64,000 nt of DNA from Psammoneis japonica (lineage: Eukaryota). Each line of letters begins with the position of its first letter. Positions within the stretch are counted from its first letter, which is position 1. The DNA lies in assembly GCA_008632985.1 (NCBI GenBank), contig QPGO01000041.1, positions 186,001 through 250,000 of the forward strand, read 5' to 3'. The notes beneath the pieces were generated by a model, which saw only the letters and a list, made by a program, of their open reading frames with translations, was not told where the DNA came from and made no database searches. The translations under genes were made by a program, and so were the position numbers. Below, piece by piece: positions 2,505 through 38,264 of this stretch.

Positions 2505-3908
2505 CTTTTGGACGACTAGTAGGAATGATAGGAGGGAAGTATCCTCGCAGCTGGTTTGTCGCCAACCTTAAACAGAAAGTCATGACGGGTACTTTGCTCC
2601 GGCAAAAGAACAAAGTTGAAGTCCTTGATATCATACGCGTGGCGGCGTTGAAGGCTTGAATCACCCTCAACGAAAAATGGAATGCGTGATTGACATAGAG
2701 AATTAAGTGCAAATTTGTCTATCGTCTAACGAAAATGGGCATACGTGATTGACTTGGGTACTGTACGTCTTACAGAATTCCATGTACATTCAATCATTGA
2801 AAACGATTTGTCTGAGCTCCACAAATCACTTGTTGTGTTACTTAAACTGAGCGGCACATTCCAAACGTGATCTCCCAAGTTCCGCAAAAAAAAAAAATGC
2901 TTGGTGCCTCGAAACTCAGAGCAGCTCAAGGCTTCACTCGATGATGTGCCAAGTCAAGAGCGACATTCAACAAATGATGGAATTCTGGTTTCTCGCATCC
3001 ACTCAGTTCCACCTTTTTGAGCTGATCGCAGTTGCAGCCACATGCGCAAGATCTTGTGCAAATTCCTGCCAGCACAATTTCCAGCTCCAATCAAGGGAAT
3101 CCCAACGGCTTCAAGTTTCTGTTCTTTGGCACGCTTCAGACCAGACTTGCATGTCTTTTAAAGCAACTTGTCCTTGTGTTGCAAAGACACATGATTGTCA
3201 TCTGTTGCACAGGTTGGTCCCACTGCCAAGATTGTGAGAGTGCCACACATTTGGCTCCCACCCAAAACATGTCTGCTCCTCTGGGAGGGCCAATCATGAC
3301 TTTTTGCTTCACCACCAGGGAATCAGACAACACCCCAATTGCTCTTTTCCATTGGCTCAAGATGCTGGTGGACTTGTTGCCAAAGCTCTGGGCCACCCTT
3401 GTCTTCAAAAGCCCTTGCAACAGAATCCTCGCACATGCAATGGCATGACCCACATTCTTGGTGGCACAGACAATTGCCGCCATGTGGCCCTTGTCAGCCT
3501 TGAAATCCAAGACCAAAGAACAGCTCCCCAACAATGCACAATGTTTGCCACCACCACTGCCCAAAGGGGCAATGGGAAAATTTGTCCCATTGAGGTGATG
3601 GACAACCACCTGCTGGTGAGTTGTGTTGGTGCAAGTGAGTGGTGGCTTTTTCTTCCTCTTGTGTTCCCTCATGCCACCAACTCTCACAACTCTGCAGCTC
3701 CGCCTCCTGTTCCTTTTTGATCATTTCAGAGAGATGATTGTCAATCTGAGTTTCAAGCTCTTTTCTTCATCAAGACTTTTGAAGAGGAAATCATTTTTCT
3801 CTGTGGCTCTCTTGCTTGTTTGTGCTTTTCTCTGTCAGGTTGTCCCCACAGCACCTCCCACAGCTTTTCCAATTCTTCTCTTTTTGTCATGCACATCACA
3901 GCTTGTCC

Positions 3909-4143
3909 AGTCACGACTCAACATCATCTGGTCGCATGTCACAACTGCAAACCAGACTCAGCCCATTTCAGTCAATTCACTTGGCTTGCTCACAATTCGA
4001 TTCAAAACAGAATCAACGACTTTTGTCACAATCTTTGGACAACGACTTTCACAAAAGCATCTGTTTGCTCTGTTGCCATCTACATTGCTGCCAACCTCCG
4101 AGGTCTTGTCCACCCTGCCAAGCTGCAGGACTGTGTCTCGACT
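3909..4143 (+). repeat. 5' LTR
   Basis: Colinear ungapped match to 10894-11128; ends AGTC...GACT. Confidence 0.95.
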
Positions 4144-4277
4144 GGTTGTGGACCCCAAGTGTCACGCGTTGACGAGTGCTCCTGACCGAGTCATCGTCAC
4201 GGACGCATTCAGTTTGATTTTGAAGCAAACCCGGGAAATCGCTTGAGACTCCTTGCTCCTCCCGTCTTCATCCTGTC

Positions 4278-7200
4278 AAGAACTTGCTCTTTCAACCATG
4301 GCACTCTCGAAGGAAACCCTGGCGGAAGCGTTTGCAATGGCTGTGGCCACAGACCGCAGATCGAATCCTCCACCTCCAACCCCAACCCAACCGTCACGCG
4401 GTGGAATCCATTGGGCTCATGGAGTCTACATTGGTGGTTCCAAACTCAATGACACACATCAGCAAACATCAACAAGAACCTGCCAATTCGCCTTGCAGTG
4501 CCGTCATCCCAAGGCTCTCGACTCGACAGAGCAATCCCTCTGAGATCAGCAAGCTTCCGCAATGACTTCCAAGTTCAATGGTCAACTCAAGATTTCAAAT
4601 GGTCCTCTCAACGAGCTTGACAAAGACCATTTCGTCAGTGCGATTCAAGAGCTGGTCGAGTGTCATGGGCAACAGATGTTCTGCCACGTCAAAACCAGCG
4701 ACGGCACGGTCAAATGTATTTTCAATCATCTCCACGAGTTCTCTGTGACCAATCTTGTGGACGAGTGCAACACCAGGACCGCAGCAACGGACAACACTCG
4801 ATGCGACCCAATCGAGCTTGACAATGTCGGCCTCTCTCAGCTTCTGGTGAAGTCCAGAATCACGAACACCTTTTGCAAGAAGATCGAAACCAAGTTCAAC
4901 CATCTTCCGGACTTCCACGACTGCCCTGGGTCGATTCCATTCATGATGGCCCTAGACACATGCAACACCAGTGCTCTGACGGATGTTGAGACAGCTGGGA
5001 AGCAGCCAGACGAGCTCAATTTGGCCAACTTTCCCGGTGAGGACTGCACGGACTTTGCTGCTGAAGCACTCTGAATCGTGAAAGTCATGCAGACCGATTG
5101 TGCACTTCTGACAAACACTGGCTCCAAGCTGCTCCACAAGGTGTCCCACACGTCGTCTGCGTGCTTCAATCGAGTCATCCACAGCCAGATTGGTGAAGTC
5201 AAGAAGATGGAACACAAGCATCGCCTCAAGGATCCCGCCGCAATCAAGTCCGACAGCGACTGCGCCAAGCTCGGACCAATTGGCATCATCTCTTGGATCC
5301 AAGAACAGCATGGCGAGCTCGTCAAGGACGGAGAATGGCCCACTTTGATTGCCAAGCTTCCAGAGAGTGATGAAGCAGCTGCCGACAACCCTGTCAAAAC
5401 CAAGCACTGCTTCGACTGTGGACTCGAAGGCTGCACCAAGCAAAACTGTCCAAAATGCAACAAGCCTCCGGCTGAGGATGATCCTCTGCCGCCTCAACCA
5501 TCTGCAGACAACCCTCCTTGTGGGAAACGGAAAATCTCTGCCTGGCGCATCAAGTTTGTTGGCGAGACCACCAAAGACTCCAAGGGAAAGGAATGGAAGT
5601 GGTGCGGCAAGTGTTTGCCAAAGGACGCCGAGAAACCCGGCATGCACCAACGTCACTCTACCGCCGAGCACAAGGAGAACTTCAAGCACCCCATGCAGGA
5701 AGCCCCCGCTGGCAATCTCTTGCAAGTCTTGGATCCCGACAGTGGTGTGCCTGTGGGCCCGCCCGCCCAGACTGCCACGGAACCTGCCGATGACGAGTCG
5801 GACCCCAACGAGTTGGTCTTCACCAGAATGTGGTGCGCGGCTGCTGACGCCATTGACGACTCTAATTTCCTCTCCACTGCAGTCCCTGCATCTGCAGTGT
5901 TTACTCTGGCACCTTCGGCCGAGAGGGAGAGCAATGCAATCATTGGCACTGAGGTCAATTGCAACGAATCGAGCCCACCCGTTCTTGCCTCAGTCATGCC
6001 TCCAGTCATGCTCCCAGTCATGGTTGAGATGACATCTCCCGAAGAAGCCGACAACTTCTGCGAATGCTCCGATGCTTCATCTGCGTTTGAGCATGAACCT
6101 CCAGCGATTGAGTTGTTTCCAGCCTCGAAGCTGCACTCCATCAAACATCCAAATGAGTTCTGTGATGCTCCCGCAAATTTGACGGACATGCTGTCAGACA
6201 ACACCAAGTTAGACCTCATTCTTGAACACGATGTGCACTTTGAAGACGCACACGACAACTTGCCTCTGTGTGTCACTCACCGTGGATGCGATTTTTGTGA
6301 CCCAGAAGACCCAGGCATGGATGATTGTCATGAGCACGACAAAGAAGAGACCTCTTCATGTCAGTCTCTGCAAGAACGAGCCAAACTCTTCGCATTCTGG
6401 CTTGCAGCTGTGTTCTGGGAGACGGTTTTGCATGTCTGTTTTGCGCCAATCCCTCGCATCCCTCGCGCTCTACGTTGCAAACCTCGTGAGCTCACTCTGC
6501 ACGGTTTTCCTGCATCATGGATGGTGCTGTCTGTGGCAATCATGGTGTGGACCACGGCGCACAAGGGCATCCCACCCGAGTGCCCATTTTCGAACATTTC
6601 GAGCCGCCTCACAACCGCCAGCTCCCAAGTCCACTCGATTGTCGGAGAGCTGGACAATCGGATTGTGTCAGATGCCGGATCATTCTTCGAACACAACAAG
6701 ATCAAGGGACGACAGGTTCTTGCCAAGTTTGTCTCGCGCCACCCGTTGCACGCGCTGAGCACCCGGCCACAAGACTGCTGGAAGACCCTGGAAGTAGCTG
6801 AACGGTCAGATCCGATTGACGAATCAGCCTTCTTTGACACCTGTGAAGAACTGGAACCTCTCGACGACCAGAAGTGCTTCTTTGACGCTCTCAAGGACTT
6901 CAGTCTGGATTTCTTCCGATTTGATGAGCTCTGCATGCCACATCACATCGTTGATGCTGCTCATTTTCAAGATCCCCATGACCTGTTGGAAGAAGCACGT
7001 GTTAGACCCGCCACACACAATGCATCCACCATCAAGCTGCTCACCGGTCACTCCCAAGCCAACCCACTTGCCTCCAATCCGGTGGCACTCATCGGTCTGT
7101 CGGATGAGCAGCATGATGTGGTCATGGACACAGGCACCACATTGGCTGTCACTTTCGACAAAGCCAATTTTGCTGCCCCCCTGACCGTTCCCAAGAAGCC

Positions 7201-10200
7201 TCTTCAGATGAATGGGATAGCCAACGGTCTCACCATCCAAGGTGCCGGTCCAGTCTCATGGGTTTTCACGACGCCGAGCGGAGCCACCATCCAACTGAAC
7301 ACTGTGGAGCACTGCGCACCCTCCTGTCTCCCCAACGCCTCTTTAACGAAGAGAAGGGAGCATCTGGCAAGTGTGAGGGCGATCAACGGAGTTTCAGAAT
7401 TGTTGTTGATGGCACTGGCAAGTTGGATGCACCGCATCACGACTCAAGCTACCTGCCCATTGCATCAATGTCCAAGGGCACCACCAAAGCTCCTCAGGTG
7501 AACCTGCAAATCCTGAACGAGGAGAATCAAAATCTCACGGCAGGACAGAAGCTTTCAGTGGAAATGCACTCTTGCTTTGGCCACATTAACTTTGCTCACG
7601 TTCAAGCACTTCTCCGCGCTGTTCCGTTCCCATCGAATCGTTTCAAGGCAGTGGCCAAGTGCGACCATCCCAGGTGCGAAGCATGCGAGCATGCCAAAGG
7701 CCACAGACGGTCCCTGGGCTCTGCCCACAAGACGACAGTCCCTGAATGCGACGGGGCCCTTCGAGCTGACCATTTGTGACCGGGTCAGGCTGTCAGCGTC
7801 AATCATTTCGAGTCTCGCCTGCTTGGCCGAACCTTTGACTCCTGCGGTAAAGCCACGTCCCGGCAATTCAAGGGCGGTCGCATTTTTGTCGATCAAGCCT
7901 CGGGCCATGTGCAGGTCGAGCATCAACTCAGTTTCTCCGCTGTCGAGACGATTCAAGCAAAACAAGCGTTTGAGAAACATGCTTTGGACCATGGTGTCAT
8001 CGTTCAGGAATTTCTTGCCAACAGTGGAGCTTTCAAGGCCAACTCTTTTGTGCAACACACACGAGAGCATGAACAACATCTCCGTTTCTGTGGAACCAAC
8101 GCCCATCATCAGAACGGCGCAGCAGAATGCGGCATCCAAAGCATCTCCAACATGGTGAGAGCGATGTTGCTCCATGCCTCTGTTCACTGGAAAGGTGGGA
8201 TTGACAGCTCCCTGTGGCCCATGGCTGTTTCTTGTGCTGCGCATGTCTACAATGTCACCCCGAATGCCAAGGGACATTGCCCAGCGGACATTTTCACCGG
8301 CTCGACAGTGCCTCGCCATTGCTTGTGAGACATTCACACATGGGGATGTCCGGCGTACGTGCTCGACCCCAAGATCGCTTCCGGGAAGAAACTGCCGAGT
8401 TGGGAACCCCGCACTCACCGCGCCTTGTTTGTGGGACTCAGTGCGATCCATTCCAGTGAAGTGCCTCTCGCCCTCAATTTGCAGACTGGCAGCATCACTC
8501 CTCAGCATCATGTGGTTTTTGACAATCTCTTCACTGCTGTGCCATCAATCGAGAGGGAGACGGATCCACCCAATCACTGGGAGCAACTCTGTCTCAATCA
8601 GTCTATTTGCATCCCTCTGGAGAGGACCAAATGGTCCACTTGCACAATGAATGGCTTGCTCCTCCAGAGCACCAACGTAAAGAGCAAGAACCAGCCAGGG
8701 AGACTCGCATTCACGGACATTTTGAGCCCACTCCATCGATTGCTGTCGAGAATCCTCCCGCTCCTTGCCAAGATGCATCCAATCAAGTCACGTCTGCGAC
8801 TCAGGAGCAAACGCCTCCAGTCCCATCTACGACTCACGATGCCATGGCTTCTGCGGAGTCTGCGCCAATTCAGCCACCTGAACCTCAAGTTGGCAATGAA
8901 CTTCCGCCACCTGAAGCGCCGCCTGAACCAACAGCTCCTCCTCTGACCAAAACCCCTGCTGTGTCGAATCCAGAGGGAGTGTCAGGGCTGCGACGGTCTT
9001 CAAGGTCAACCAAGGGACAGCTCAACTCTGCCAAGTTCATGGACGAAGTCTGCTGCAGCTCCGTCAAGGAAACCCCAGTGCCGAAGGGACACGAGGCTCA
9101 GCTGGCACATCTGGCAACTCTCGAGACCGACTTGGATTGTGCCACACTCAATGTTGGTGATCCTCGAGCCCATGCAGCAAGCAAGAAAACCAAGGACCCT
9201 GACATGCCTTCCTTGCACAATGCTCTGAAAGGACCGGATGCCGAAGAGTGGATCAAGGCGATGAAAATCAAAGTCAACACGCTCATCCATCGTCGAGCAT
9301 GGGAAGCAGTCGAGCGCACTCCGAAAATGAACGCACTCCCAGGAACATGGGCTCTTGAACTCAAGCGGCCACCAGATGGCACACCCTTGAAGTGCAAAGC
9401 CCGGCACTGTGTTTGCGGCGATTTGCAGAAAGAAGGAGTGGACCATTTTGAGACCCATGCACCAGTCGTGCAATGGTCCAGCATCCACCTTGTGCTCACT
9501 GCAGTCTTGAAGGAAGGATGGACTGCGCGTCAAGTAGACTGTGCTGCTGCCTTTTGCCAAGCCGACATTGCCGAAGAAGTCTGTGTGTCGCCACCGAAGG
9601 GTTTCGCGCCAAGATCAGGACTCAACATGGTCCTCAAACTTTTGAAAGGACTGTGCGGTCTGAAACAGTCTCCCAAGGGTTTCTGCGAGAAGCTGCGAGC
9701 TGGATTGATTGAGCGCGGATGGGTGCCTTCAGCAACAGACCCTTGCCTGTGCTTCAAGGAAGGGATGATGTGCATGGTGCACGTCAACGACACCGCATTC
9801 GCTGGAGCATCAGCTGAAGCTCTAGAGGAGGAGATTCGCAAGTCAGGAGTCTCCAACGATGAGCATCGCCACATGTTTGAACTTAGGGACGAAGGAGAAG
9901 TCAGAAATTTCCTCGGCATCAAGATCGAGAAGCTCTCCGAGGGCCGATTTTTGCTCACCCAACCTGGTCTCATTGACAAGGTCCTGCGCACCGCCCAGAT
10001 GGAAGAATGCAATGGAGCTGTCACTCCAGCCCTTCCCACTCCTGTTGGTGCTGCCACGGACGGCCCACCTTTCGAAGAACCCTGGGATTGTCGTTCCGTT
10101 GTTGGCATGTTGATGCACTTGGCTGCAAACAGTCAGCCAGACATCGCCTGCGCAACACATCAAGTTGCACGTTTTTCATTTGCACCCCAAGCGCCCCATG

Positions 10201-10872
10201 CTGCTGCAGTGAAGCAGATGCTCTGACACCTCAAGGCCACTGCTGCTGAGGGTCTCATTCTCAAGCCTGCGCAAGATCATCGAGTTGATTGTTGCGTCGA
10301 TTCTGACTTTGCGGGCTCATTTGGTGTCGAAGATGGGCAAGACTCAGTTTCAGTCAAGTCCAGGACTGGACACCTCATCCACTGTTCCGGCTGCCCGCTT
10401 GTCTGGGTGTCCAAGCTGCTGACTCTCGCAGCATTGTCGACTGTGGAAGCGGAATGTGTCGCACTTTCTCAAGCCATGCGCGATCTCATCCCCATCCGTG
10501 AAGTTCTCAAGGAGCTCAACCATCACGTGTTCGGAAAGTCTGACCACCAAAACCCTGTCACGACTCGATCCAAGGCTTTTGAGCTCGCAAACCAAGGTTC
10601 CGAAGATGCACCTGTTGAGCAAAATGTCCTGCCTGCGTCCGTTGTGTACGAAGACAATGCCGCGTGCCTCAAGTTTGCACGCATGCCCAAGTTGTCTCCG
10701 CGAACCAAGCACATCGGCATCCCGCACCACTGGTTTGGGACTAAAGTCTCGAACAATTGGAGATCAACATCCAACCCATCAGCACTCCAGAGCAACCAGC
10801 CGATCAGCTCACCAAGGGACTGCGGACCGATGCGTTCCGTGCGGCTAGAAAGGCTCTTGCATGGGCTGGCAA
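4278..10872 (+). pseudogene. Copia gag-pol pseudogene (TGA stops, frameshifts, Tyr replaced by Cys/His)
   Basis: Knuckle-like CFDCGLEGCTKQNC, protease VVMDTGTT, integrase HSCFGH..CEAC and AHHQNGAAE, RT CKARHCVCG / LCGLKQSP / MVHVNDT, RNase H DSDFAG / EAECVALS / YEDN / KHI. The probable terminal M-G-W-stop now reads ATG GGC TGG CAA (10861-10872). Confidence 0.95.
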
Positions 10873-10893
10873 GCTCTCTCGGTTGAGAGGGAG

Positions 10894-11128
10894 AGTCACG
10901 ACTCAACGTCATCTGGTCGCATGTCACGACTGCAAACCAGACTCAGCCTGTTTCAGTTGATTTGTTTGGCTCGCTCACAATTCGATTCAAAACAGAATCA
11001 ATGACTTTTGTCACAATCTTTAGACAACGACTTTCATCAAAGCGTCTGTTTGCTCTGTTGCTGTCCATGTTGCCACCAACCTCCGAGGTCCCATCCACCC
11101 TACCAAGCTGTGGGACTGCATCTTGACT
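10894..11128 (+). repeat. 3' LTR
   Basis: Follows the PPT, matches the 5' LTR, and is followed by TSD TGTCC. Confidence 0.95.
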
Positions 11129-12082
11129 TGTCCCAGATTTTGATGGTCATCAGCACATCAGAACTCTCTTTCCACTTGGTCAGTGTCCCACTCTCCAGCT
11201 GTTTTCACACTGCAAGCTTGTGTCAAGGTTCGCTTGTTCCACACAATCTCTGTGGATTTCTCTTGTTGTTGTGAGTGTCAACTGGACTCCTCACTCTCCA
11301 GCAGCATTTGCAAAAATGTTGGATGACTGCTTTGCAATGAAAACACAAACCCTTGTTGCAGCAGCAGCACATTTTGGAAGGATGAGAAAGTTGGTGAGTG
11401 TTCCTCCTGGCGAGAGTGCACAGAGTGGTCCCCAGCCCTCCTTTCAAAGAGTTGCCAGCCAGCACACCACACCCAGCCCACTGTGTGCTGCAGTTGGAAT
11501 TGTTCCTGATGGTTCCAACTGCAGCTTGCTTGGTTCAATCAAAAAGGGAGTGCAGGACATGTCACAGCTCCATTCCGACACAACTGAGTGCACCAACTGA
11601 TTGAGGCAAAACAGCATGCGCAGCAAGACACATGTGTGCAAAACTGTGCTGGCGCCGTGTGTTGTTGTTTGTTGGGGCAGTTGCCATGATCCAAATTCTC
11701 TCTCTGTGAGCATTTGAAACAATGTCACCAAAGAAAAGGGACAACAGAATCAAAATGAACAAAAGCAGCACAATTTGGACATTGCGGCAGAGAGCGAGTT
11801 TTGTGCAGGGGGGTGTCACCACAGCAACGCAAGGTCCAGTTTTTTTATCCTAAAATTTTGGTGGATCACCTTCAAACAAGCAATGTTCATTGCTTCTATG
11901 TGACAGCGCCGAGTGGCAAATAAAAAGCCGCTCCGATTCTCACGGTGGTGTTTTGAGGAATGGTGTACATGCGTGACTGAATGAGTCCCGTCTAGCTTCC
12001 ATTAGAAGCACACCACACCAAAACCGAAAACAACGGTCACAAGAAAAAAGACTCGACACACAAAATTTCGTGTCATTTGACC

Positions 12083-14077
12083 ATGGCGCCGACGTCGCCA
12101 TCACAACGGGCGGTCGTTCGACGCACGTCGTATGTTCAATCCTATCTTGTCATTGCATTGGGTACATGTAGTCTCTTGACGGTTCTTGTCAATTTTCTAC
12201 ACGGATCTCACGTGGCTTTTTTGCACGAGCAAGAACATAAGGATAGTGTCTTTTTTCAGCGCATCGTTCCAGCAACTAGCAAACACGAGTTGGCGGGTTT
12301 AAAGTGTGATGCCTACGGTGGTCCTTCGGAAGAACTGGCACAAGAAATGGTATATTGGTCCGATATTCAAGAAGATGCTTCGTATACGAGTCCGTTTTTT
12401 GATAAGGACACGCCGCGGTACATGACGTTTGAACCGGATGGGGGTGGTTGGAATAACATTCGCATGTCCATGGAAACCGTACTGGCCATGGCTCGTGAGT
12501 ACTTTTTTTGCGAATGTTCTGTGACGTTATGGTATGCTGTGTCTGTTCTTATATTGTCAATCTCTCTGTTCTTTTCTGTGTTTAGATGCCATGGGACGAA
12601 CACTTGTGCTGCCGCCCGAGCAGAGCATGTACCTGTTGGGAAAGGTAAGTATGATCAACTTTAAACTATTCGAGTCTTTTTTGTCTCTCGCATCACATTT
12701 ATCATGTATTTCTCTGGTTCTTTGTTAAAATATAGGGTAAAGCCAAGGTAGGTATTGACGTTCTGGATGCTGTTGTCTGTTGTTGGTTTCTTCGTCTCTA
12801 TCTTTTCTTCTTACATCTCTCTTACCACCCACCTGATTTGTTGACTCTCTCTCGTCATTATATAGAATGGCAAGGAACAACGCCGAGAGTTTTCGTTTTC
12901 CGACTTTTTCCACATGGACTCGATTTCCCGAGAACACGAGGGCCTGGAAATTATTTCGACAAAAGAATTCTTGGAACGCGAGGCTCTGACGGGACACTTG
13001 GTGGACCGTACCACGGGCAAGGTTTCCTTTCCACCCGACAATCGAACCGATTGGAACGGTGACAAGCAAGTGATTGAACACATGTTTTCTCCGTGGTTGC
13101 GGAGTGTGGCCTACCAAGGCATGAAGGATTGGAATCCAAACGAGTGTATCGCGGCCTTTCCGGCATCGAAGGATGCCAAAGATATCGATGCTTTGAATCG
13201 TATCGTCAAGAAAATATCTGAAAACAAGTGGCCCAAGTGGGAACAATACGTGGGCAAACCAACACCGGTCGATGCCTCACCGGAAGAACGCCTCAAGGAG
13301 AACTCTGCAGACCGCCACAAGCTGTGCATTTACAATCAAGAAATGCAAGAGGACTTGTTGGTGCATTTTTCGGGAAAGCAAAAACTGGGTGGTCGCTTGT
13401 TGGTGCACTTTTATGCCTTTTTGTTTTTTGAAGATTGGAAACAAGACTTGTGGATGAAGCGGTTTGTGCGGGATCATGTCCGCTACGTTGATGAGTTGCA
13501 GTGTGCGGCGGCTCGTGTTGTGCATGCCGTGCGACAACGTGCGATACAAGTGGGAAATGCCAATGGAGAGTTTGATTCGTTTCATGTACGTCGTGGGGAT
13601 TTTCAATACAAGGAAACGAGAATTTCTGCCGAAGAATTGTATGAACGGTCCAAGGATGAAATACCCGACGGAACCACTGTTTACATTGCAACAGATGAGC
13701 GCGACAAGAGCTTTTTCAAGCCGCTTGCGGAGCATTACCACTTGGTATTTCTGGACGACTTTAAGCACTTGTTTGAGGATCTCAATACAAACTACTATGG
13801 AATGCTGGATCAATTGATTGCCTCTCGTGGTCGTGTCTATTTTGGTTGCTGGTTTTCAACGTTTTCGTCGTACATTAATCGAATGAGGGGCTATCATGCC
13901 GACAAGCTCAAGTTACCGGGGTATGAACAGGGACTCGTTGAGAGCTACTACTATGCTCGACCGGACGATAAGTACAGAATGCGGGAGTTTTACCCCGTCA
14001 AGAAGACATTTCATTCAAGAGAATACCCTGCAAGCTGGAGAGGTATTGACAAGGGAATAGGGTTGCTACAAAACTAA
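12083..14077 (+). CDS. GDP-fucose protein O-fucosyltransferase family protein; exons 12083-12494, 12586-12644, (12736-12747), 12866-14077
   Basis: N-terminal signal anchor, GGWNNIRMSME, GRTLVLPP, FHVRRGDF, VYIATDE and STFSSYINRMRG motifs; canonical splice sites keep the frame. Confidence 0.9.
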
Positions 14078-20210: not shown

Positions 20211-23179
20211 GCTTGTTATTCGTCCTTTTTTTCTACAAGTCAAATCTCATTGAATTCGTGTCGTCGATGGATTGGGCTTCTTCTTCTTCTTCTTCGACAA
20301 GCTCCTCCTCCTGCTGCACCGTTGTTTGGTGTAGGCGTCGTCTTTTCTCACCAACTCGTCGGTTCCGTGTTATCATACAGTAACATCAAATCGTTGCGTT
20401 TGCTGACTGTTTCAAGGTTATGAGCCATGTGTCAAAGCAGCACAAAATGAAATTGGGCATGCCACCTTGAGCCAAAAGGAGACACTTGAGGCAGGAACAA
20501 CACTGACATGAACCACCAGAACAGCGCCATTTCAACATAAAGCAAAAGTGGCTGCAACAATTTCCTCCTGCCAATCCACGCCCATGTGCTCATGATTTTC
20601 CCAGATCACAAGGCACTGGCACCCACAGCACATGACTTCTTGCTCAAATCATCGTGGCATGGAGAGCCTTTCTGCTCCACTGCACTGCCATCCACAAAGT
20701 TCCCCAACTCTGTTGTTCATGCAGCGCATGCCTTCTTTGCCTTGGCAGCCAGTGGGGATGTGATTTTACACCCCAGGTGACAATCTGAGGAAGAGAAAAA
20801 GAGATGTCAAAAATGCCGCGAGTTGACAGGCCCCATCCACAAGGCACAAGAACAAATGGCAAAAATCAAACTTTCAACCATGCCGTTGCATGTAGAGCAC
20901 AGTCTCATTGATGTGTCTTGGCACTCTTTACTTTTTTGTCACAATGGGCACTGGTGTGAAAATGGGCAAGAGTTCATGGCAGCCACGGCATGGCGCCATT
21001 TTTCTCTGTGCACAATTTGTGGTTTAAGAGGGGGTCATTTGCCACTTTTTTAAGCTCAAATTTGGCCAAACAGCTGGTGATTTTCATGATTTTTTCCTGA
21101 ACTTCACTGTGCTTTGCCATGGTGAAAACATCTGGCCACAAGTCTGTGACAGAGTTGGCCCATCTGTCAACAGTCATTCTTTGTTTTCTTGTTGTGTTTG
21201 TTGTGCACATCAATGGTCGCGTGTGCATCAAATGTTTGAGGATGGATCACTGCATTTTGGAGAAATGTTGACATTGCCATCATCATTTTGTGCTCCAATC
21301 ACAGTGCCTGATGTTCTTGTTTTTGTGAATGATCAGGGGTGAATGCAAGTGATTTTTGCATTCTAAAATGAACACTGCAATGTCCTCTTGTTCAAATGCC
21401 ACAGCAACTCCAGGACAAATGCAAGGATGACCCCCCTCAAGACATGAAAAAACACATCTTTGTCATGGAGCCTGATTTTCTTGTGCAGGCTTGGCACTGA
21501 ATGCACAAGCTGGGTGCATGGAAAGATGCAGAGAACCTCTTGGCTCATCCAAAAGTTTGCTTCTTGCCTTCAACCAGGGTGCAAACACGTCAACCACTCC
21601 CCTTCACGCTGCTCCCTTGCATTGTGGCTGCCAACAAATTCCAGGGCTTTGCAACCAGCTGTTCTTGCTGAAGACCCTGTTGCTGCATCCACCTGGAGTG
21701 GAGCTGTGCTGTCAACTGCTGGCCATGGAAATCCACGTGCAATTTGTGCTTGCTCAGCAGCACTCTCTTGACAGTTGGAGCATGAGGCAATGCCACACAT
21801 GTGATGTTTTAGATGCTTTGGTCTTTTCACCAAAACCTGATGTGACTCAGGTCAGAGCTCAGAACTCAACACATTTGTGTGGGAGCACGCATTCTGCCAC
21901 ACCAGCAGCAGACAAAGCTTGCACAACATGCGCCTGTCTAACATCACTGTGCAGATCATGAAAACCAGCATTGTTTGAGGGTGGTGCAGGTTGCCACTTT
22001 TTCCAGCTCAAATTCAACCAAGTGGCTTGTCTTTTGCATTTTCCCCTGAATTTCACCATGCTTCCGTCTTCCAACTCTCGTTTGTTTTGTGTTCCTCATG
22101 CGCGCCAAAGTTCTCACACACGTGAAAAGTTTGAAGATGGCAAGCTGCATTTTGAGAAATGTTGATGATCATCATTGTTGTTGCACCTCAATTGCAGCAC
22201 ATGTGATGTGCTTGTTTTCATGCGAGATTGGCGACGGGGTGTGCTGAACACAACAAGAGCAATTTTTGTGCTCAAAAATGGGTGCCAACAAACGTGTGAC
22301 AAACAACATCATTCAATTGCGTCAGCAGTTTCAGGACAAATGCCTGAATGACCCTCCCAAGCTCTGAGCCCCCAACAGTGCCTCCAATTGCAAATGTGCA
22401 CGTGATTGACAAGAACCAGGCCATGCAACATGCTGTGTGACTGAAGGTTGCTGCACCAATGCAAAGCAGAGGTCATGGTCTGCGAGTGGTGGAGGTCATT
22501 CAATGTGTTGGAATGAAGATGACAGACAAGATTGAGGACTTTTTTGACGAGAGTGTTGGCGTGGTCACAGTTCTGACTGCTTTGGTGGCAGCTGGCTCTG
22601 TTCACACTCTCCTGCTAGAGTGGAGAGTGGCAGCTGCTCTAAAGGAAGTTGCATCATGCAGTGCATGCGCGCGTAGAAAACAAAGTGCTGTGCGGCTGCT
22701 GTGGGTGGGGACGCCGTAAAAATCACGCAGGTGCCATTTTTTTAGAAAAATCAACCTTGCTGCCCAAATGGACCATGTCGGTTGTCAACCACCTCACACA
22801 AAAAGTGTCATCATCTCGATTCATAAGACTCAACGTGCGGTCACAACGCGCAAGGCTGGGCTTCCAATTCCCGCCACAACGTCAGCTAAGTGACCACCAA
22901 GTCAACCTGCCATTTCTCACCAAATCGCACTCGCACCCTCAGGATCATTGTAAAAAGTTGTGCTTTTGATGCCATCATGTCCGCCGTGATCAAATTGGGC
23001 GGGGTGCACCAAAGTGCAACTTTTGGCGGCAGTTTGGATGTCTGCCAATGTCAACATCTCTCATTTGAACAACATGTCATCATCAAAATGGCAAGTTCAT
23101 GAGGCAGAACTGAGCCACCTGACAGCAATGAAGTCAAAAGATGGCCTGTCGGTGCTTGCTCAAGTTGGACATCTACTCA

Positions 23180-24640
23180 CTGCATTGCAAAAGGGACATT
23201 TTGGCAATGTCAGGAAGGGCACGTACAGGACTGCGGGATTTCCCGTGTTGGATCTACGAAGCACTCAGAAAATTGTTTTAGGATCCATTGTTTCAATCAT
23301 GGATGCACAGAAGATTGCAAAACGAATCATTGACAGGAGGAAGTTGCTGTCTCAAGAATGCCAAGATGCGCTACAATCGTGTGTGACATGGAGAACGGAT
23401 GGATAAAACTCTTCAGATTCAAACAAACAACAATGACAAGAAACGCAAGCGAACCCACTTTCATTCCAGAATTTCAACAAAGGTGAGACTCCGACAATGC
23501 AGGCATTCTCTGTGTGGAGTTGTGTTGAAAATTGAAATGAATGTCGCCTTTCATCACTGGTTTGCCTCACTTTTTTAAAGTTGTGTCCGACAGGCAAATG
23601 CCAGAAACTGATTTTGTCTCATCATGGTGCGGCTTTGTGATGCCAAAAGGCATGGTTGATTTTCTGCATTTCTCGCGGAGATGTGTTGCTTCTGCAATGA
23701 CACCAAAGCAACCCCTTCTTTTCTTTTTTTCTGCTGCAAGCACTTTGACAACAATTGCGTCATGACGCATGTCATTCAGATCATTGCCATGGCAAATGCA
23801 TTGCCATTGCACGGGACAAGAGTTTGCCATCAAGGTAAATCCAAACAAATGAACAAACCCTGTTGGCTGAGGATTCAACTGCACTCCAAGCTGAAGCCGC
23901 CATGTTGCAGAAATTGGATCATCCTTAAATTGTCAAGCTGCACAATGTGTCTTGCAGTTGAGCCAGAGTTCTTCATTTGGTCATTTTGGCGGTGACGCGT
24001 CTGGTTGTATCTGACATCCTTCATCAACCTTGGTTTGTAAAGCACATTCATTTGGAAAACCATTGCAACAGTGACTCTCACCCCTCCCCACGCGCTGATT
24101 ATGTGCCCACAGGTTTTGGAGATGCTGCACGCACATTGGAGACCGTTTTGATCAGATTGTGTCAAAGGGCAAGTGCTCTGAAGTCCAAAGATGCTGAGTC
24201 ATGAGACAATTGCTTGCTCAGTGTAATTTACCACCTTCAAGCCATTCACAGTGACTTCAAGCCAGAAAAGATTGTGATGATTGATCGTAACTCTGACATT
24301 GGCACCAAGCTGACAGACTGTGGAATGGCCACCGCAAGACCTTTTGTCAAACACCCGGAGTGTTGCGACACCGTCACATGGTTGCTGGACGAGTGAGATG
24401 CAAAGCGGATGCCGACATGTTTTTGTTGGGAGTCATTTGCTGCATCTTGCTGTGGGTGGCAGTCCTCCCTTTGCTGGTGATGCCGCAGGAGCCACCGAAC
24501 GACAAGTGACGTTTCTGCCAGATGTCTTTGCCAATGTCATCTGCAGGCAGCTAAACATTTGGCAGTTTGGTTGTTGCTGGCAGACCCAAAGGACTGATTG
24601 TCAGCACAAGAAGTGTGTCAGTGCCTTTGGATCTTGATTG
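23180..24640 (+). pseudogene. Degenerate Ser/Thr (CAMK-like) protein kinase
   Basis: Ordered motif relics KGHFGNV (Gly loop, about 23190), IHSDFKPE (24244), KLTDCGMA (24307), LGVICCIL..PPF (24426-24472); stops and frameshifts; TA-depleted. Confidence 0.75.
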
Positions 24641-26029
24641 ACATGGAGACACGCCTGTCAATCCTTTGGATGATCCCGCGTTGGCCAACTCCTGAGGCAA
24701 CAACAATGAAATGACTCATGGTTTGCAAACAAAAGACAAATCAGAGAATGTGAATGTTGACAAACCTTTGGAAGAGGACTCAAGGATGACTGAGCAGAAG
24801 GACACGAATGTGAGAACGGAGGAGACAACGAGTGAGCGTGACCTTGTGAGAGAGGGGCGAATTGAATTGCCACTCCAAGGGCAACGGGGAATTCTGAACA
24901 TGGAACAGACACGTGAAAAGACTAAAAAAATGTAGAGTTCATCATGCTTGAAATTGTGACCTTAGAAGCAGTTTCACTGGGAAACAAGCGAGCATTTGCT
25001 CGGTTGATTTTCATTTTTTATGCGGCGAAGCACGGCAAAATCTAGAAAGATGCTGCTTCATGTTCTCTGCAACTAGAGAGTCAGGCAACACAGTGGACAC
25101 ATTGCTGGAGACGTGAGAGCCTCTACTTTCAACATTGGCTGCCATTGCCATCACAAAGGCTGCCAGAACATTCCAAAAGGTGTGCACTTGTTCGGGTGAT
25201 TTTTACACGGTGAAGTGCGGCAAACGCGACAAAAGTGCCATTTCACGTTCTCTCCAACTACGGAGTCAGGTGACTTGGCAGATATGTTTTTAGATACGTA
25301 AGAGCCTCTGCTGTTGACATTGGCCAGCATTGGCATGATAAAAGCTGCAGCAACATTCCAAAACTGCAAATGAGCAACGGCGGGATTTTCGAAAAATCGA
25401 AGTGTTTTCAGTCGTGATTGCACGGCAAAGCACAGGAAAATGGCGGTCACTTCATCGACATCAATATCGACAAATACAAGGCCAATGAAAAAGTTACCCC
25501 CATGCCATTCTAAGCACCTCTGAACACCCTCTATCGACTAAGGTAACTCTCGTTTCGATCCAAGAAAATTCGTCTCTACGTGATTTATACGGCGTCCCCA
25601 CCCACAGCTGCAGCGCGCGCAGCACTGTACTGTCCCGTACAGTAGAGGAAAATTATGACTCTATGGTCATAGGTTTTGGGAAGTGTTCTTGGTTTCTAAA
25701 TGACTCGTACTATATTGACATATTTGAAAGTTACCATCAAGCAATGGGAGATTTATGATCCTACCAAATCATTATATGTAAATGACGTATGTTTTATATA
25801 TACTATAGTAAGTCAAATTGCGATAGTCAATACCTCAACATATGAATAGGTAGGCCATTTGTCTTGATCCTCATTAAAAAATGTCCAATCCATTCGTGAT
25901 AGAATGGACATTTTCGGTCATTTGCAAAGTCTTTCGAGAGATTGGCGTTTTCTCGCGCCGCCCTTTCATTATTTGCTTTTTTTTCCGTCCTACTCACACT
26001 TGAGAAGAGTTAGGCGAGAGTCAAGAAAG

Positions 26030-31968: not shown

Positions 31969-33422
31969 CCTTTTTGGGTTGTCACCTGGCAGTGGCTACG
32001 TATAGGCATGGCGTGGTGAATATTGGGAATAGATACGGAACCGTCAAACTGGATGAATGACCCGGAGACTTGACATCTAGTAGGTTAGATGATTTCGTAC
32101 TTGCGTCCCACAAGAAAAGCCCACATGGTGAGTGTGATTCACGTTTCCACGCTTCGCGCTTTGGGGGGAAGCAACAAGGGGAACATCGGGTTAACATGGG
32201 TTAACATTCATGCCGACGTTGACGTCTCGACTCGGCCCGGCTGCTTGTTCATTCTCAACAAAATTATGGCCAGTGCGACAAGATTGACGCTCTCTTAGCA
32301 TCCGGCCCGAAAACCAAATGAAGAGATGTGTTCTCTGCGGCCTTGATTCCCCGTCGATGACAAGCATGCATTCTTTGAGTAACGATGGTGCTGTCAATTT
32401 CTACATCGCGTGTGTGGTCTTGGCAGATAAAAAGATGACGATGCAAGGCACTTGTCCCACCCCATTGTGGAATTGACAATTGCCCCGTTCCCCAGAGAAT
32501 GGATGGGCGGGAAACCAGGCCAATGCTACTTCAACGTTGGCACAAACGATGTCTGGCTTGCTCGAGCGCCACTCCCGTCCAAAGCTACAGTGTGTAGTTG
32601 TTCCCTTGGAGACTCGACAGTTCTAGCTGCTAAAATCTAGCCAGAGGTAACACCACCCAAACCACGGACTTGAATGTGTCTCGCTGGCCTGCCCAGAGCA
32701 CCGTGTGCAGGTTGCAAAACCACATAAGTTGTAAGAGCATAACTGTCACACACTGCCTGTGCTCTCCCCCCCTTTACTGCCCCTCCTTTTTGTGACCCCT
32801 TTTGCACTTCCCGACACAGCTGCCCCTGTGGCCACGACCCCTGACCCCTCAAATGCCCTTCGCTCTTCTTCAACACCCCCTGTCAGGCTCTGTGGTCCAC
32901 CAAGAATCATGGGCAACCCTGCCACCAGCCAGCCCCAGATTGGCTGCAAACAACCACCCCTTCACCTCCTTTTGCTGGTGCAGCCATGCCAATGCCTCCT
33001 GCAACTGGGCTCTGGTTGCCACCTGTGTCACCATGCTGGGTTGAAAGCCAGCAGTTTTTCCTTGGCAGGAGCCTCTGACCACACACCTGCCAGGCTCTCT
33101 TTGCTGGCTGTGTCTTTGACATTGACAACTTCTTTTTTCTTGATGATCTGGGCCCATTTGACCATCCTTCAGACAACCCTCCCAGTGCCCCCCTTGTCAT
33201 TTTTCTGCCCTGGAAATGACCCATTTCCTGCCTCCTCCCTTCTTTCCTTTGAAAGCTTTCTCCTGCCTGTGCAGCTGCCTTGAAAACTCCTTTGGTGCCA
33301 TCAAGGTTGCCATGGTTGACCCACACTTTGCTGCCTCTCTCTTCTGCATGACCCTGCTGCCCTCTCTTTCCATTCCACCTGGCTCTCTCCCAACTTTGGC
33401 AGCTGCTTTGATGCCTCCACAT

Positions 33423-33423
<1 letters not shown>

Positions 33424-33477
<54 letters not shown>

Positions 33478-33507
33478 ACACACACACCACACACACACAC
33501 ACACACA
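33424..33507. repeat. (CA)n microsatellite with two interruptions
   Basis: Seen directly. Confidence 0.97.
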
Positions 33508-33508
33508 A

Positions 33509-36500
33509 ATGAAGCTTTCACCTCATGTTTCCAATGCCAAGTCTTCTCCCAAGCAGGAGAAAATTGTTCCGGTGCCTTTGGAGTCAATCTCTGAGCCGCC
33601 CAAAGACCCTGAAACCAAGCCAACATCTCAAGATGAAGCAGTGTTTTCACCCAGGCAAGAAGAACAGCCACGCTCACACCATCAATGTCAAGTGTTGCAA
33701 GAAGCAAGGTGACCCCAAGTGCCTCAAATTCCTGAAGAGCCACAAGCAACTCTTGGTGGGCCAGAATGTCAAGAAGCAAGCAGACAAGTTCCATCTCATG
33801 CGCACGTTGTTTCAAGGAGACATGCCACATGCGTCCAAGAATGGCGCTGTGAATGTTGAAGATGAGGCAGCCAAAGGAGCCTTCAAAAATGCCAGCAGCA
33901 CCTTGCAAGACATGTTTTCCCAAAGAGTGCACTTCAGATTCAGAGGCATTGTCTGCGGTGCAATCTCAAGAAACCAGAGAGCATGAAGATCCAAGAAATT
34001 GCTGCTTGGGTCCAAGAAGTGAACAAAGACCTCAAGTTTTGTCCTCCCTTTAAAGAAGACCAGAGTGTTGAGGAGGATGAGCTCAAGGATGTCCTTGACA
34101 ATCTTGCACCTTGCAAATGGCAGCACCAATCAACCGCTTGAGGTTTTGAAATTTTGAAACACACCTTTGACAAGTTGGTCAAGTTTTTTGAGCATTTGGA
34201 GGTGTTGCTGAGGATGTGTTTGACTCTGTCCATGTCAAGGCTGATGCCAGCAACAAGTCTGGATCAAAAGCCAAGGACGGATCCAACCATGGTTCCAAAA
34301 ATGGTTGCCAATCTGGTGCCAAATGATCTGAGTCTGAAAAGTGGTGCAGTTGTTGCAAAAAACCACTCGTGATGTGGGCACATGCTGGGTCTTTAAGAGA
34401 CTGGCAAAAGAATGCTGTGGAAACTGCGAGTGTGATCCAAAACAGTGCCGCTCAAATGGCAACTGCACGTGGTTGTGCTGCGATGACAGGGTGCCACTCA
34501 CAAAAAAGAGTTGAACGCCATGGCCATTCAGGCAGTTCAAAAAACACTCAAGACAAGTTCTTTGAACAAAGATGCAAAATGCAAGAGAAAGGAGCATGGC
34601 TCTTGTGCCCTCAGCGAGTCATTCCCAAGAATTGCTGTGCATCATTTTTTCAGAATGGGGGCAATCCACACTGGTCCAGCTGTTGTTGCTCACATGAATG
34701 CCTCTTTGGGCAAAGCAAAAAATGACCTCAACCATGATTTTGCACAAGTTCATGCAAAAAGTGAGAACAGAAAAATCTGCCACAAAAGTTTGGAAAACCA
34801 AAGGAGGGCTCTTCATGAATGACAGTCAGAGTAAAATCACAGCTCTCCTTGCCTGAATTTGATGAACATGAGATGATGGAAACAATGGCACATGCCTTGG
34901 GAGAAATGCGAGTGCTGCAGACTGTCCATGGGAATCTGTAGAGTGCCAGATGTGTTCTAAGAGCACATGAGTGAGCTCTTGGCAGGGCCAGAGTTTGTCA
35001 GAACTTGTGCTGACAATGTGCTGCACTGCATCTTGAAAAAGGTGATTTTCAAGACCAACGGTGTTCATGCACCTTGAACAGCTGGATTGAAGGTCAATGC
35101 TGAAAAGTCCTTTTTTGCTGAGTCCAAAGCAGACAATCCAGGCTTTTGCATCACTTGCAATGGCATCAGTCTGACACCCAAGAAAGTGGAGGCAATTTGC
35201 ACAATCACAACTCTCAAAACTTGCAAGGAATTGCAGTGCTTTGTCAACATGACCAACCACTGTCGAGACATGTGGCCTTGACAATCTCACTTTCTGGCTC
35301 CTTTGGAAAAGCTCACCTCATCCAAGGTGAAGTGGCAATGGACCAAAGCTGAACAAAAAGCCTTTGAAAACATGAAGCGCATCATTTCAAAAGACACACA
35401 TTGTTGTCACACCCAAATTTCAAAGAACCCTTTGAGACATGTGCTGATGGGAGCAATTCTCAATCTGGGTGGTCATTGTGCTGATCAACCAACCCATTGC
35501 TTTCTGCAGCAGCAAGCCGAATGGAGCACAGAAGTGTCACACTGCAATGAAAAAACAACTGCTGTCTTTCATGGAAACACTGAAAGAGTTCCGACATGTG
35601 CTGATTGGCCAACAAACAAGTGTGTGCACGAATCAAAAAAAAACTCACACACAAAAATTTCACAATGGACAGAGTCATGCATTGGTGTCCAACAACAGAA
35701 GAGTGCAGCCCCAAAACAATTCACCTCAAGGGCAAAGCTGACATTGTTGCAGATGCAGTCAGCTGACTCATTGTGAGAAAAATGGCGCCCATGGAAAATC
35801 TCAGCACAGAAGAATCAGCTGAAACGGCCCCACCAAAATCCCGCAACAATGTCTTTCCATTGACACGCAAAGTTTTTGATGCCAAACAGAAGTGGGACAA
35901 AGACATTCTGTCCAAATTGTCAAATGAGACATGACACACAAAGACTTTTTGTGGAGGTGAGTGAGACCAGTTGCTCACATGACACAAGGACAAAATCATT
36001 GTGCCAAAGACATTGCAAAAGGCAGTGACAGACTGGTGCCATGCACATCTTCTGCACACTGGCATGAATGGAACAGAAGAAGACAATTTCACAACACCCA
36101 TGGTGGTCCACCTTGCATGAAAACATGAGGAAATGTGTGGTGAAATGTGAGACGTGCAAAAATTAAAAAAGAAATGGAAGAAACATGGACAATTGCCCCC
36201 CAAGTTTGCAGAGTTGGTGCCATGGGAATGACTGTGTGTGGATCTCATTGGGCCACACAAGATGGTCACAAAGGAAAGAAGAAACCCCCAGCCTAAAATG
36301 TTTGACGATGGTTGATCCAGCAACTGGATGGTTTGAAGTCGTGGTGATCCCTGATGAGGAATCCACAACTGAAGCTGGGCCATTGGCAAGAACATGGCAA
36401 AGCGATGTTCTTGGCCATTGTCAACTGCATGTGACCATGGAAGTGAGTCCATTGGCCGCCAATTCAAAGACATGGTTCAAGATGATGATGGCACCAAAGT

Positions 36501-37761: not shown

Positions 37762-38264
37762 TGCAATGCACATTGTCATGCACACTCACGTGCATGTGAA
37801 TGTTTTCACATTTTCAATTGTGCGTCAATTGTGGGTTTGTGCAAAGAAGGGCTGGTCAATCACAGAGAGTTGACTGGATGTCAGAAATTGCAAATGTGAT
37901 TGCACAATGATGTTGACATCTTGTGCATCAACAGCAATTGCGCCAGACAATCTGTTGTCACGGCTGCATTCTCCAAAAGGCGTTTCAGTCTGCAGAAGCA
38001 GCACAGAAGCCTTGGGGCATTGAGAGCTTGTTTGGAGAAACCCAAAATGATTGAGCAGATTTCAACTTCACAATTTTCACTTTTTGCACTTTGTTTTGAT
38101 TTCATTTGCGCTGATTCTTTGAGCACAGTGCAAAGCCATGGAAGCCAAGAAACAAAAAGACTCTACAGTGTCAGTGCTTTGAAACAGCTCCGCTGTTGAC
38201 AGCCCCCAAGAACAAGGGCCAAAAGTGGCACAACTCATCAACTTCTTTTACAAAATTGGCAAAA

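Follow-up and report, generated by a model that had tools for sequence, protein, structure and literature searches.

A Ty1/copia element depleted of TpA

We analysed a stretch of 64,000 nt from the genome of the diatom Psammoneis japonica (assembly GCA_008632985.1, contig QPGO01000041.1, positions 186,001 to 250,000 of the forward strand), here referred to as the window, which contains at positions 3,909 to 11,128 a degenerate Ty1/copia retrotransposon that has lost nearly all of its TpA dinucleotides, most probably after its integration. A repeat search and MAFFT alignment of the window identified a pair of direct repeats (3909-4146 and 10894-11131), of which the long terminal repeats (LTRs) proper comprise 235 nt each (3909-4143 and 10894-11128), with the ends AGTC...GACT. 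The element consists of the following features:

3904..3908, + strand: left target-site duplication TGTCC, with the identical pentamer immediately outside the LTR ends at 11129-11133
3909..4143, + strand: 5′ LTR, 235 nt, with 31 differences from the 3′ LTR and one TpA inside
5075..7501, + strand: degenerate long open frame of the gag/protease region, 808 aa from stop to stop, the gag label resting on its position upstream of the integrase only
7558..8628, + strand: integrase region in element frame 2, located by tblastn of the homologs P0009, P0017 and P0029 (55–66% identity)
9297..10034, + strand: Ty1/copia reverse transcriptase RVT_2 (Pfam PF07727, 103 bits, E 2.6e-29)
10885..10893, + strand: polypurine tract adjoining the 3′ LTR, read from the sequence
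10894..11128, + strand: 3′ LTR, 235 nt, with two TpA inside
11129..11133, + strand: right target-site duplication TGTCC, the same pentamer as at 3904..3908

The direct LTRs, the 5-bp duplication, the polypurine tract and an RVT_2 domain with the integrase upstream identify the feature as an LTR retrotransposon of the Ty1/copia type, and this copy is dead. When 50 homologs were aligned to it by tblastn, the integrase, reverse transcriptase and RNase H were spread over three frames, corresponding to two frameshifts, and these are accompanied by one stop codon and by the replacement of every conserved Tyr, with the catalytic box of the reverse transcriptase reading HVND in the element and YVDD in its relatives. 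The integrase region gave weak Pfam matches to gag_pre-integrs and SH3_retrovirus, both under the curated cut-offs, and the 808-aa frame at 5075..7501 had no Pfam match at E≤0.01. The closest protein relatives are 60% identical and originate from environmental contigs, with one relative coming from the diatom Cylindrotheca. The LTRs, the 5-bp duplication, the integrase upstream of RVT_2 and the marine-eukaryote relatives are shared with the diatom Ty1/copia elements of the CoDi groups, as passages of PMC2806351 describe them, whereas the copy studied here differs from those elements in being dead and frameshifted and in having lost all conserved Tyr.

The family to which the element belongs is multi-copy, as 984 contigs of sequencing run X1 match it at a likeness of at least 80%, and the summed depth of the family in this run amounts to thousands, versus ~32 for exact single-copy contigs. 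Sequencing runs X2 and X3 contained next to no contigs matching the element, and no further copies of it were found inside the 64-kb window. Across the element, run X1 contained 799 variant places, comprising 567 transitions and 232 transversions. The older repeat on either side of the element (3600-3860 and 11169-11400) had a summed depth of ~89 in run X1, compared with the single-copy value of ~32, and is probably a low-copy repeat itself.

The element contains 29 TpA in 7,223 nt, giving observed/expected (o/e) ratios of 0.07 (TA), 0.71 (CG), 1.41 (CA) and 1.53 (TG). By comparison, TA o/e is 0.4–0.78 and CG o/e ~1 in those 1-kb bins of the window that contain genes. In the pol genes of related loci (80/80) the TpA o/e ranged from 0.36 to 0.88, and it fell below 0.2 in none of 732 1-kb windows across 423 kb of such loci, which were collected by a search with conserved peptide motifs that favours intact copies and carries little information on other diatoms. 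Since the related loci all have a normal TpA content, the low TA of the element is not a compositional trait of its family. Six of the metagenome copia pol loci (L078, L016, L025, L029, L015 and L080) have a CG o/e of 0.13–0.24 together with a TpA o/e of 0.48–0.76, and are examples of CpG decay in which TpA has not been purged.

LTR divergence and the polarity of the changes

Of the 235 nt, 31 are different between the two LTRs, through 30 transitions and a single transversion, and the differences are strongly concentrated: 29 of the 31 lie in pyrimidine-purine steps (YpR, 115 positions), with the remaining 120 positions containing the other two. Sorted by dinucleotide, nine sites are CA/TG, with CA standing in either LTR and TG in its partner (reciprocal sites), two are TA/TG, one is TA/CA, three are CG/CA and three CG/TG, and five CG but no TA are shared by both LTRs. 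Our alignment thereby reproduced every count of the initial annotation of this DNA (31 differences in 235 nt with one transversion, nine CA/TG sites, three TA sites, six CG losses and five shared CG). The 5′ LTR has CA at six of the reciprocal sites and TG at three, and both LTRs carry both types of outcome. When 31 random transitions were placed on the 5′ LTR in 20,000 trials, the number of reciprocal CA/TG sites was at most 5, compared with the nine observed, and was zero in 8,247 trials. Similarly, among 14 LTR-like terminal repeat pairs from related metagenome elements, a set that includes pairs with 40 and 51 differences, reciprocal sites were absent from 12 pairs and numbered one and three in the others. 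The concentration in YpR steps also distorts any age estimate, as the Jukes-Cantor distance between the LTRs is 0.145 over all sites and 0.017 over non-YpR sites, an 8.6-fold inflation which bears out the earlier warning that LTR divergence would overestimate the age of this element.

The direction of change was read from the pol region, on which we mapped 35 homologs (P0003-P0037), taking a codon as conserved when at least 80% of at least eight homologs agreed. Of 324 conserved codons 69 are altered in the element, and their distribution is far from even: all 12 conserved Tyr codons (TAY) are lost, six to His (CAY) and six to Cys (TGY), and the kept codons include 9/9 Trp, 5/5 Cys and 21/22 Pro. 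The changes inferred from these codons comprise 17 A>G (13 at TpA), 15 T>C (12 at TpA), 12 G>A (11 at CpG) and three C>T, with 19 transversions and 12 ambiguous cases making up the remainder. The two strands are thus affected equally at TpA in pol (13 A>G vs 12 T>C). Arg codons of the CGN type were lost in 7/18 cases (0.39), which is the same as the rate of CpG loss in the LTRs.

These rates allow an estimate of the ancestral state of the reciprocal LTR sites, made by hand arithmetic on the dinucleotide classes. With five CG kept and six lost on one side, CpG loss is ~0.375 per LTR copy and predicts ~0.9 reciprocal sites, while a TA loss of ~0.92 per copy fits the zero kept, three one-sided and ~8 reciprocal sites, and matches the complete loss of the 12 conserved Tyr codons. 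A second estimate, using the 25:12 ratio of TA-type to CG-type changes in pol, yields ~7.4 TA-derived and 1.6 CG-derived reciprocal sites. In addition, one contig of run X1 has CA at the position that is TA in the 3′ LTR and TG in the 5′ LTR, which a TA ancestor would predict. The view that TA was the ancestral dinucleotide at most reciprocal sites thus has indirect but strong support. The initial annotation had proposed that most CA/TG sites were once TA, which by the estimated rates would hold for about 7–8 of the nine, but not for the remaining one or two, which are probably CG-derived. This number agrees with a different contig, from another family copy and aligned by eye, that has CG at two of the nine sites. 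We had ourselves first taken the reciprocal sites for classic CpG decay, a reading that the polarity of the codon changes and the dinucleotide counts led us to drop.

Purged blocks, intact paralogs and block edges

The TpA depletion is not confined to the element, as seven TA-purged segments in five blocks together cover 31.4 of the 64 kb, with a TA o/e of 0.03–0.075, a CG o/e of 0.19–0.65 and a CA+TG o/e of 1.5–1.87. The blocks, to which no strand is assigned, are:

2843..12131: block 1, the element with ~1 kb of older repeat on each side, TA o/e 0.07
20538..24923: block 2, with sub-blocks 20538-22616, 23404-23836 and 24100-24923, TA o/e 0.03–0.075 and CG o/e 0.25–0.56
32775..44976: block 3, 12.2 kb, with its true right edge at 45007-45012, 23 TpA (o/e 0.028), CG o/e 0.26 and CA+TG o/e 1.82
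49287..51133: block 4, a mutated paralog of the RING-FBA region 31086-32748, with weak FBA and Lipase_3 relics
56554..61332: block 5, containing the mutated copy C of a TPR-prefoldin gene, recognised by its purged-block statistics and by paralog comparison

Self-comparison of the window revealed that purged stretches are paralogs of nearby normal genes, of which the intact copy could be used as a proxy for the ancestor. The most informative of these is the TPR-prefoldin gene, present in three copies:

52766..53632, − strand: copy A, the intact control, with Pfam TPR and Prefoldin_2 matches (compared region 52613-53659)
61749-62621: copy B, unmutated, 95.6% identical to copy A over 878 nt
57640-58537: copy C, mutated, located in purged block 5

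From copy A to copy C none of 34 TA sites was kept, with 16 becoming TG and 15 becoming CA, and the 36 CG sites were likewise all lost, with 15 each reading TG and CA. Copy B as reference gave the same result (23 TA sites, none kept, 12 TG and 9 CA; one of 34 CG kept), and so did the comparison of the RING-FBA region (31086-32748) with 49385-51002 in block 4, where 46 TA sites yielded no TA, 20 TG and 18 CA, and 75 CG sites yielded eight CG, 36 CA and 22 TG. As controls, copies A and B have kept 31/33 TA and 40/41 CG, and a segmental duplicate of 82% identity in normal DNA (25993-28479 and 45960-48619) has kept 64/95 TA and 76/112 CG. The continuation of this segmental duplicate is the RING-FBA pair itself (31086-32748 vs 49385-51002), in which the second copy alone is purged.

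Expressed per strand, the fraction of sites with a transition between intact and mutated paralogs was 0.44 for TpA and 0.41 for CpG, and 0.10–0.16 in every other context, while the control duplicate in normal DNA gave 0.06–0.12 in all contexts. Conversion of TA to CG was never seen, and neither was that of CG to TA (0/36, 0/34 and 0/75), which argues for a single change per site, with CA and TG as end states. With the intact copies standing in for the ancestor, these comparisons show TA to be the ancestral state and the changes to be dinucleotide-specific, in the direction A:T>G:C, on both strands and once per site, within restricted domains.

The sharpness of these domains is best seen in a tandem duplicate of ~550 nt (44612-45159 and 45157-45711, + strand, 91% identity) that spans the right edge of block 3. 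In copy 1, the 396 nt up to 45007 carry 32 substitutions, of which 30 are A:T>G:C (22 at TpA), none is G:C>A:T and two are transversions. Of the 24 TpA sites in this part, 12 have become CA, ten TG and one TT, with one still TA, and 17/18 CpG are intact. From 45012 onwards copy 1 has kept 10/12 TpA, and copy 2 is untouched, which maps the edge of the purge to between 45007 and 45012, inside the repeat unit. The outcomes CA and TG are interleaved along copy 1 (17 runs in 22 events, counted by hand), which argues for many independent changes in a stable domain and not for strand-coordinated single events. As TpA was purged while 17/18 CpG remained, the TpA process and the loss of CpG appear to be separate. 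The specificity for TpA is strong, although not absolute: eight of the 30 A:T>G:C changes at the edge fall outside TpA (in the contexts AA, GA, and T before T or G), are compatible with either adenine or thymine chemistry, and suggest a weaker off-target activity of the same process.

Other block edges are step-like as well, with dense TpA on one side and none over 300–700 nt on the other, and at several of them the loss of CpG lags behind that of TpA. The older repeat flanking the element has a CG o/e of 0.18 and 0.33 in 1-kb bins, versus 0.71 in the element, which by these ratios appears to have inserted into an older, more CpG-depleted repeat block; the lesser CpG depletion of the element indicates that the TpA purge is faster than the CpG loss. 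Homology does not seem to be the trigger, given that neither the gene copies A and B, at 95.6% identity, nor the second copy of the tandem duplicate has been altered, and that an edge lies inside a repeat unit. The comparisons show targeting that is regional, not homology-wide, and a TpA process that behaves independently both of homology and of CpG loss. The Pfam search of 55 open reading frames detected no transposon or viral domain in the older blocks, the matches being the FBA and Lipase_3 relics and one weak DUF. Block 3 contains in its interior two adjacent direct repeats (35935-36653 and 36667-37381, 77% identical), and has no Pfam domain anywhere.

The few TpA that survive in the blocks (88 sites) are not a random sample of their kind. 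Purines are found 3′ of both As (TTAA, CTAA/TTAG and CTAG) in 49/88, compared with 218/1,358 in host DNA, and pyrimidines 3′ on both strands (ATAT, ATAC/GTAT and GTAC) in 4/88, compared with 398/1,358, an outer-neighbour bias with a chi-square p of 8e-17. At sites where one strand alone reads T-A-pyrimidine, that strand was the one changed in 21/28 cases (binomial p 0.0125). The survivors and the changed strands concur in showing an extended target, TAY (with Y a pyrimidine) or, equivalently, RTA (with R a purine) if thymine is the base attacked.

The host genes mark the window as nuclear DNA of a diatom, as the RING and FBA gene has 154 relatives, of which the named ones are nearly all from diatoms with one red-algal entry low in the list, and the nearest Atlas clusters of the O-fucosyltransferase (O-FucT) gene are from Bacillariophyta. 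In unpurged DNA, the opposite strand may carry a diverged paralog of the O-fucosyltransferase gene, as suggested by an inverted match of 66% identity between 12884-13878 and 15896-16902. Short tandem repeat arrays are present at 29059-29519, inside an open reading frame with a Pfam PT-repeat match, and at 48610-48971, near the end of the segmental duplicate at 48.6 kb.

The proposed process and its alternatives

We propose, with a probability of roughly 80%, that the dead copia element was rewritten after its integration by a process that converts TA to CA or TG on double-stranded chromosomal DNA, within sharply bounded blocks. In such blocks of silent or repeated DNA nearly every TA would be converted once, on either strand, to TG or CA, and a second, slower process converting CpG to TpG or CpA would be superimposed, which is most simply seen as deamination of 5-methylcytosine in methylated repeats. 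Because TA and CG losses both end in CA or TG as an absorbing state, this would explain the reciprocal CA/TG sites between the LTRs. The TpA change is likely to be enzymatic, with adenine-to-inosine deamination in DNA by an enzyme needing a 5′ T as the most likely chemistry, and the deaminase may be recruited to a heritable chromatin domain as a form of genome defence. In tRNA, adenosine deaminases target an A that has U as its 5′ neighbour. A bolder version, in which diatoms, or P. japonica at least, edit adenines in double-stranded chromosomal DNA with a TadA/ADAT-like, TAY-preferring deaminase held on heritable, base-pair-sharp domains, where every TpA of silenced transposons and of stray gene copies is converted, as an old counterpart, opposite in chemistry, of fungal repeat-induced point mutation (RIP) that extends across the stramenopile-alveolate-rhizarian (SAR) group and is homologous to a system in Bigelowiella, is doubtful.

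The chlorarachniophyte Bigelowiella natans provides the closest parallel. The main text of a preprint on this alga (Mettrop et al., bioRxiv 10.64898/2026.01.13.699255) reports on two viral regions integrated in the genome, in which 230/231 de novo mutations changed A to G or T to C and fell on TpA, arising in some lines at ~1e-7 to 1e-6 per site and generation, and puts forward the hypothesis of adenine-to-inosine deamination by an enzyme requiring a 5′ T. As described there, the two systems share A:T>G:C changes at TpA, giving TpG or CpA depending on the strand, a restriction to discrete regions, and TpA depletion with CpA+TpG enrichment, and in B. natans the TpA-poor coding sequences are enriched in reverse-transcriptase and DDE domains. 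Both organisms are marine algae of the SAR group, and in the window, too, the A>G and T>C changes at TpA are found in discrete regions whose neighbouring genes are unaffected; TpA loss in P. japonica and the TpA-only hypermutation of B. natans would be processes of one kind. The host differs, being a diatom (Stramenopila) here and a member of the Rhizaria in B. natans, and with respect to the preprint's account the targets differ as well (an LTR retrotransposon and blocks with host-gene relics, versus giant-virus and virophage inserts), as does the saturation (TA o/e 0.03–0.07, versus a Rho of 0.45 in the hypermutable region of B. natans derived from a nucleocytoplasmic large DNA virus, NCLDV). 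Unlike in B. natans as reported, CpG loss is superimposed in the element and block cores of P. japonica, with the block edge showing A:T>G:C only, and our evidence is historical, from sequence comparison, whereas the B. natans mutations were observed de novo. The words 'trinucleotide', 'flanking', 'CpG' and 'diatom' do not occur in the main text of the preprint (bioRxiv 10.64898/2026.01.13.699255), nor do the 3′-pyrimidine flank preference and the base-pair-sharp domain edge seen here, and a literature search, of incomplete coverage, found the signature in this preprint only and not in diatoms or other stramenopiles.

Several observations weigh against our proposal. The polarity in pol was read from proteins only 50–60% identical to the element, and the contig of another family copy with CG at two of the nine reciprocal sites, from run X1 and aligned by eye, favours a CG ancestor at these two. 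Furthermore, among 40 variant places listed of the 799, which lie outside the LTRs, the other copies read TA opposite CA or TG of the element at two only, and CG opposite TG or CA at eight; the other copies have therefore been largely purged of TA as well, and the ancestral TA cannot be seen in them. With the copia element of mobile origin but no transposon domain recognised among the 55 open reading frames of the older blocks, the status of the latter as repeat or foreign DNA is putative, and run X1, whose contigs bear out the assembled letters, could be the very data from which the assembly was built, its platform not being on record. Finally, both the deaminase and the targeting signal are putative, and A:T>G:C at TpA could equally arise from a mispairing modified thymine.

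This last option, in which a modified (e.g. oxidised or hydroxymethylated) thymine of TpA in silent chromatin pairs with G and gives T>C on either strand, is unlikely overall, although the sequence by itself favours neither chemistry. Modified thymines occur in some protists, and some oxidised forms mispair. An A>G change on one strand is indistinguishable by sequence from T>C on the other, and the flank preference reads equally well as RTA for an attacked T; against this, our analysis gave no evidence for such a modification in diatoms.

It is considerably less probable that one machine with two specificities converts both TA and CG to CA or TG. The old blocks do lose both dinucleotides nearly completely, with the same products and similar per-strand fractions (0.44 and 0.41), and deamination of A as well as C in DNA has been reported for ADAT2-type enzymes, in work cited in the main text of bioRxiv 10.64898/2026.01.13.699255. 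However, TA loss in the element is ~0.92 and CG loss ~0.38, the edge of block 3 is TA-purged with 17/18 CpG kept and not a single G:C>A:T change, CpG loss lags at several other edges, and CpG-poor relatives with normal TpA exist. The signature reported for B. natans is also A:T>G:C only, with CpG not named in the main text (bioRxiv 10.64898/2026.01.13.699255).

A process resembling RIP, in which duplicates are detected by pairing and all copies are mutated, with A:T>G:C at TpA as its chemistry, has an equally low probability. The multi-copy nature of the element family, the presence in the blocks of paralogs of window genes and the step-like block edges, as for a sequence-defined target, could be taken in its favour. 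Fungal RIP, moreover, shares with the process described here that it acts on DNA, after integration, through dinucleotide-biased transitions that inactivate transposons and inflate their divergence. RIP as known is C:G>T:A, mostly CpA>TpA, and enriches TpA while lowering GC; the changes in the window are the opposite, with TpA destroyed (o/e 0.03–0.07), the direction A:T>G:C and GC raised. RIP also mutates all copies over the duplicated length, whereas near-identical copies escape here: gene copies A and B are unmutated (95.6% identity over 878 nt, TA kept 31/33), copy 2 of the 91% tandem duplicate is untouched and the edge lies inside copy 1, and the 82% segmental duplicate (25993-28479 and 45960-48619) is normal in both copies. 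The main target in B. natans, as given in the preprint's main text, is a single-copy region (bioRxiv 10.64898/2026.01.13.699255).

Decay of methylated CpG alone, by which all reciprocal sites would be former CG altered on opposite strands and the TA sites double changes, is very improbable. CG>TG/CA change does occur in the element and blocks, with six one-sided CG losses in the LTRs, one other family copy reads CG at two reciprocal sites (by eye), and LTR retrotransposons of the diatom Phaeodactylum are CpG-methylated according to passages of PMC2806351. Decay of methylated transposons would account for the six one-sided CG losses, for the changes of Arg to His, Gln, Cys or stop, and for the CpG-poor block cores, but it leaves TpA alone and, in the window, proceeds more slowly than the loss of TpA. 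CpG decay has no way of removing TpA, of which double changes would even generate more; yet the TpA o/e is 0.07 and 12/12 conserved Tyr are lost. With intact paralogs as reference, TA has become CA or TG and CG has never become TA (0/36, 0/34 and 0/75), a CpG loss of ~0.38 per copy predicts ~0.9 reciprocal sites against the nine found, the block edge is TpA-purged with 17/18 CpG intact, and relatives with a CG o/e of 0.13–0.3 have normal TpA. As the sole cause CpG decay is already refuted; it is a component of the pattern, in which TpA is lost faster and more fully. GC-biased gene conversion was also rejected, as it would not be specific for TpA, saturating or confined to dead DNA.

APOBEC3 and ADAR enzymes produce deaminase-driven, context-specific clusters of transitions in retroelements, with ADARs favouring a 5′ U. 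They act on RNA or single-stranded cDNA, with strand bias, and on retro-transcribed sequence only, whereas here the strands are equal and DNA that was never retro-transcribed is also affected. Editing before integration, whether ADAR-type A-to-I change on RNA or deamination of reverse-transcription intermediates that was then fixed by integration, is for this reason scarcely credible, although RNA adenosine deaminases typically prefer a 5′ U/T, according to the main text of bioRxiv 10.64898/2026.01.13.699255, and deamination of a cDNA intermediate can in principle make LTRs differ. The purge also reaches into the older flanks outside the element, the numbers of A>G and T>C at TpA are nearly the same (13 vs 12), the outcomes in the tandem duplicate are interleaved, and both LTRs have both outcomes. 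The initial annotation had concluded that the mutation was post-insertion, on DNA and on both strands, and had excluded RNA editing and reverse transcriptase error, and both conclusions stand: the LTRs were independently changed in both directions at the same dinucleotides, and the same conversion is carried by non-retroelement DNA, namely the host-gene paralog relics and one copy of the tandem duplicate.

A sequencing or assembly artefact, such as misread modified bases, has a negligible probability even with the platform of run X1 off record and its possible identity with the assembly's own data, since exact k-mer contigs of 315–587 nt at a depth of ~32 match the element with zero differences, every TpA has settled on one of two products, which differ between the LTRs, the changes come together with a stop codon, frameshifts and transversions of the sort seen in real decay, and Illumina sequencing of B. 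natans mutation-accumulation lines yielded the same signature, as the preprint's main text reports (bioRxiv 10.64898/2026.01.13.699255).

Returning to the proposed rewriting of TpA on chromosomal DNA, A:T>G:C change at this dinucleotide runs against the near-universal GC>AT mutation bias, and is known in print, according to our literature search, from the 2026 preprint on one chlorarachniophyte alone, with the diatoms as a second major and ecologically weighty lineage. What is added to this recently described, genome-defence-like hypermutation is a new host lineage, a new target class and near-saturation, as the process reaches LTR retrotransposons and stray copies of host genes and not viral inserts only. 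New constraints on its mechanism are the single change per site, the TAY/RTA flank, the absence of a need for homology, edges of a few bases and the independence from CpG decay. In practical terms, LTR-divergence dating is wrong here by nearly an order of magnitude. Furthermore, both strands lose TAA and TAG through the purge and are left with TGA as the sole stop codon, so that long spurious open reading frames arise in each of the six frames (50 of them, with at least 80 codons, overlap 3500-11500), and gene callers may annotate such frames in purged blocks as genes. The enzyme could be approached directly by comparing the deaminase repertoires of genomes with and without this footprint, and as a natural adenine editor of double-stranded DNA it would be of interest too.

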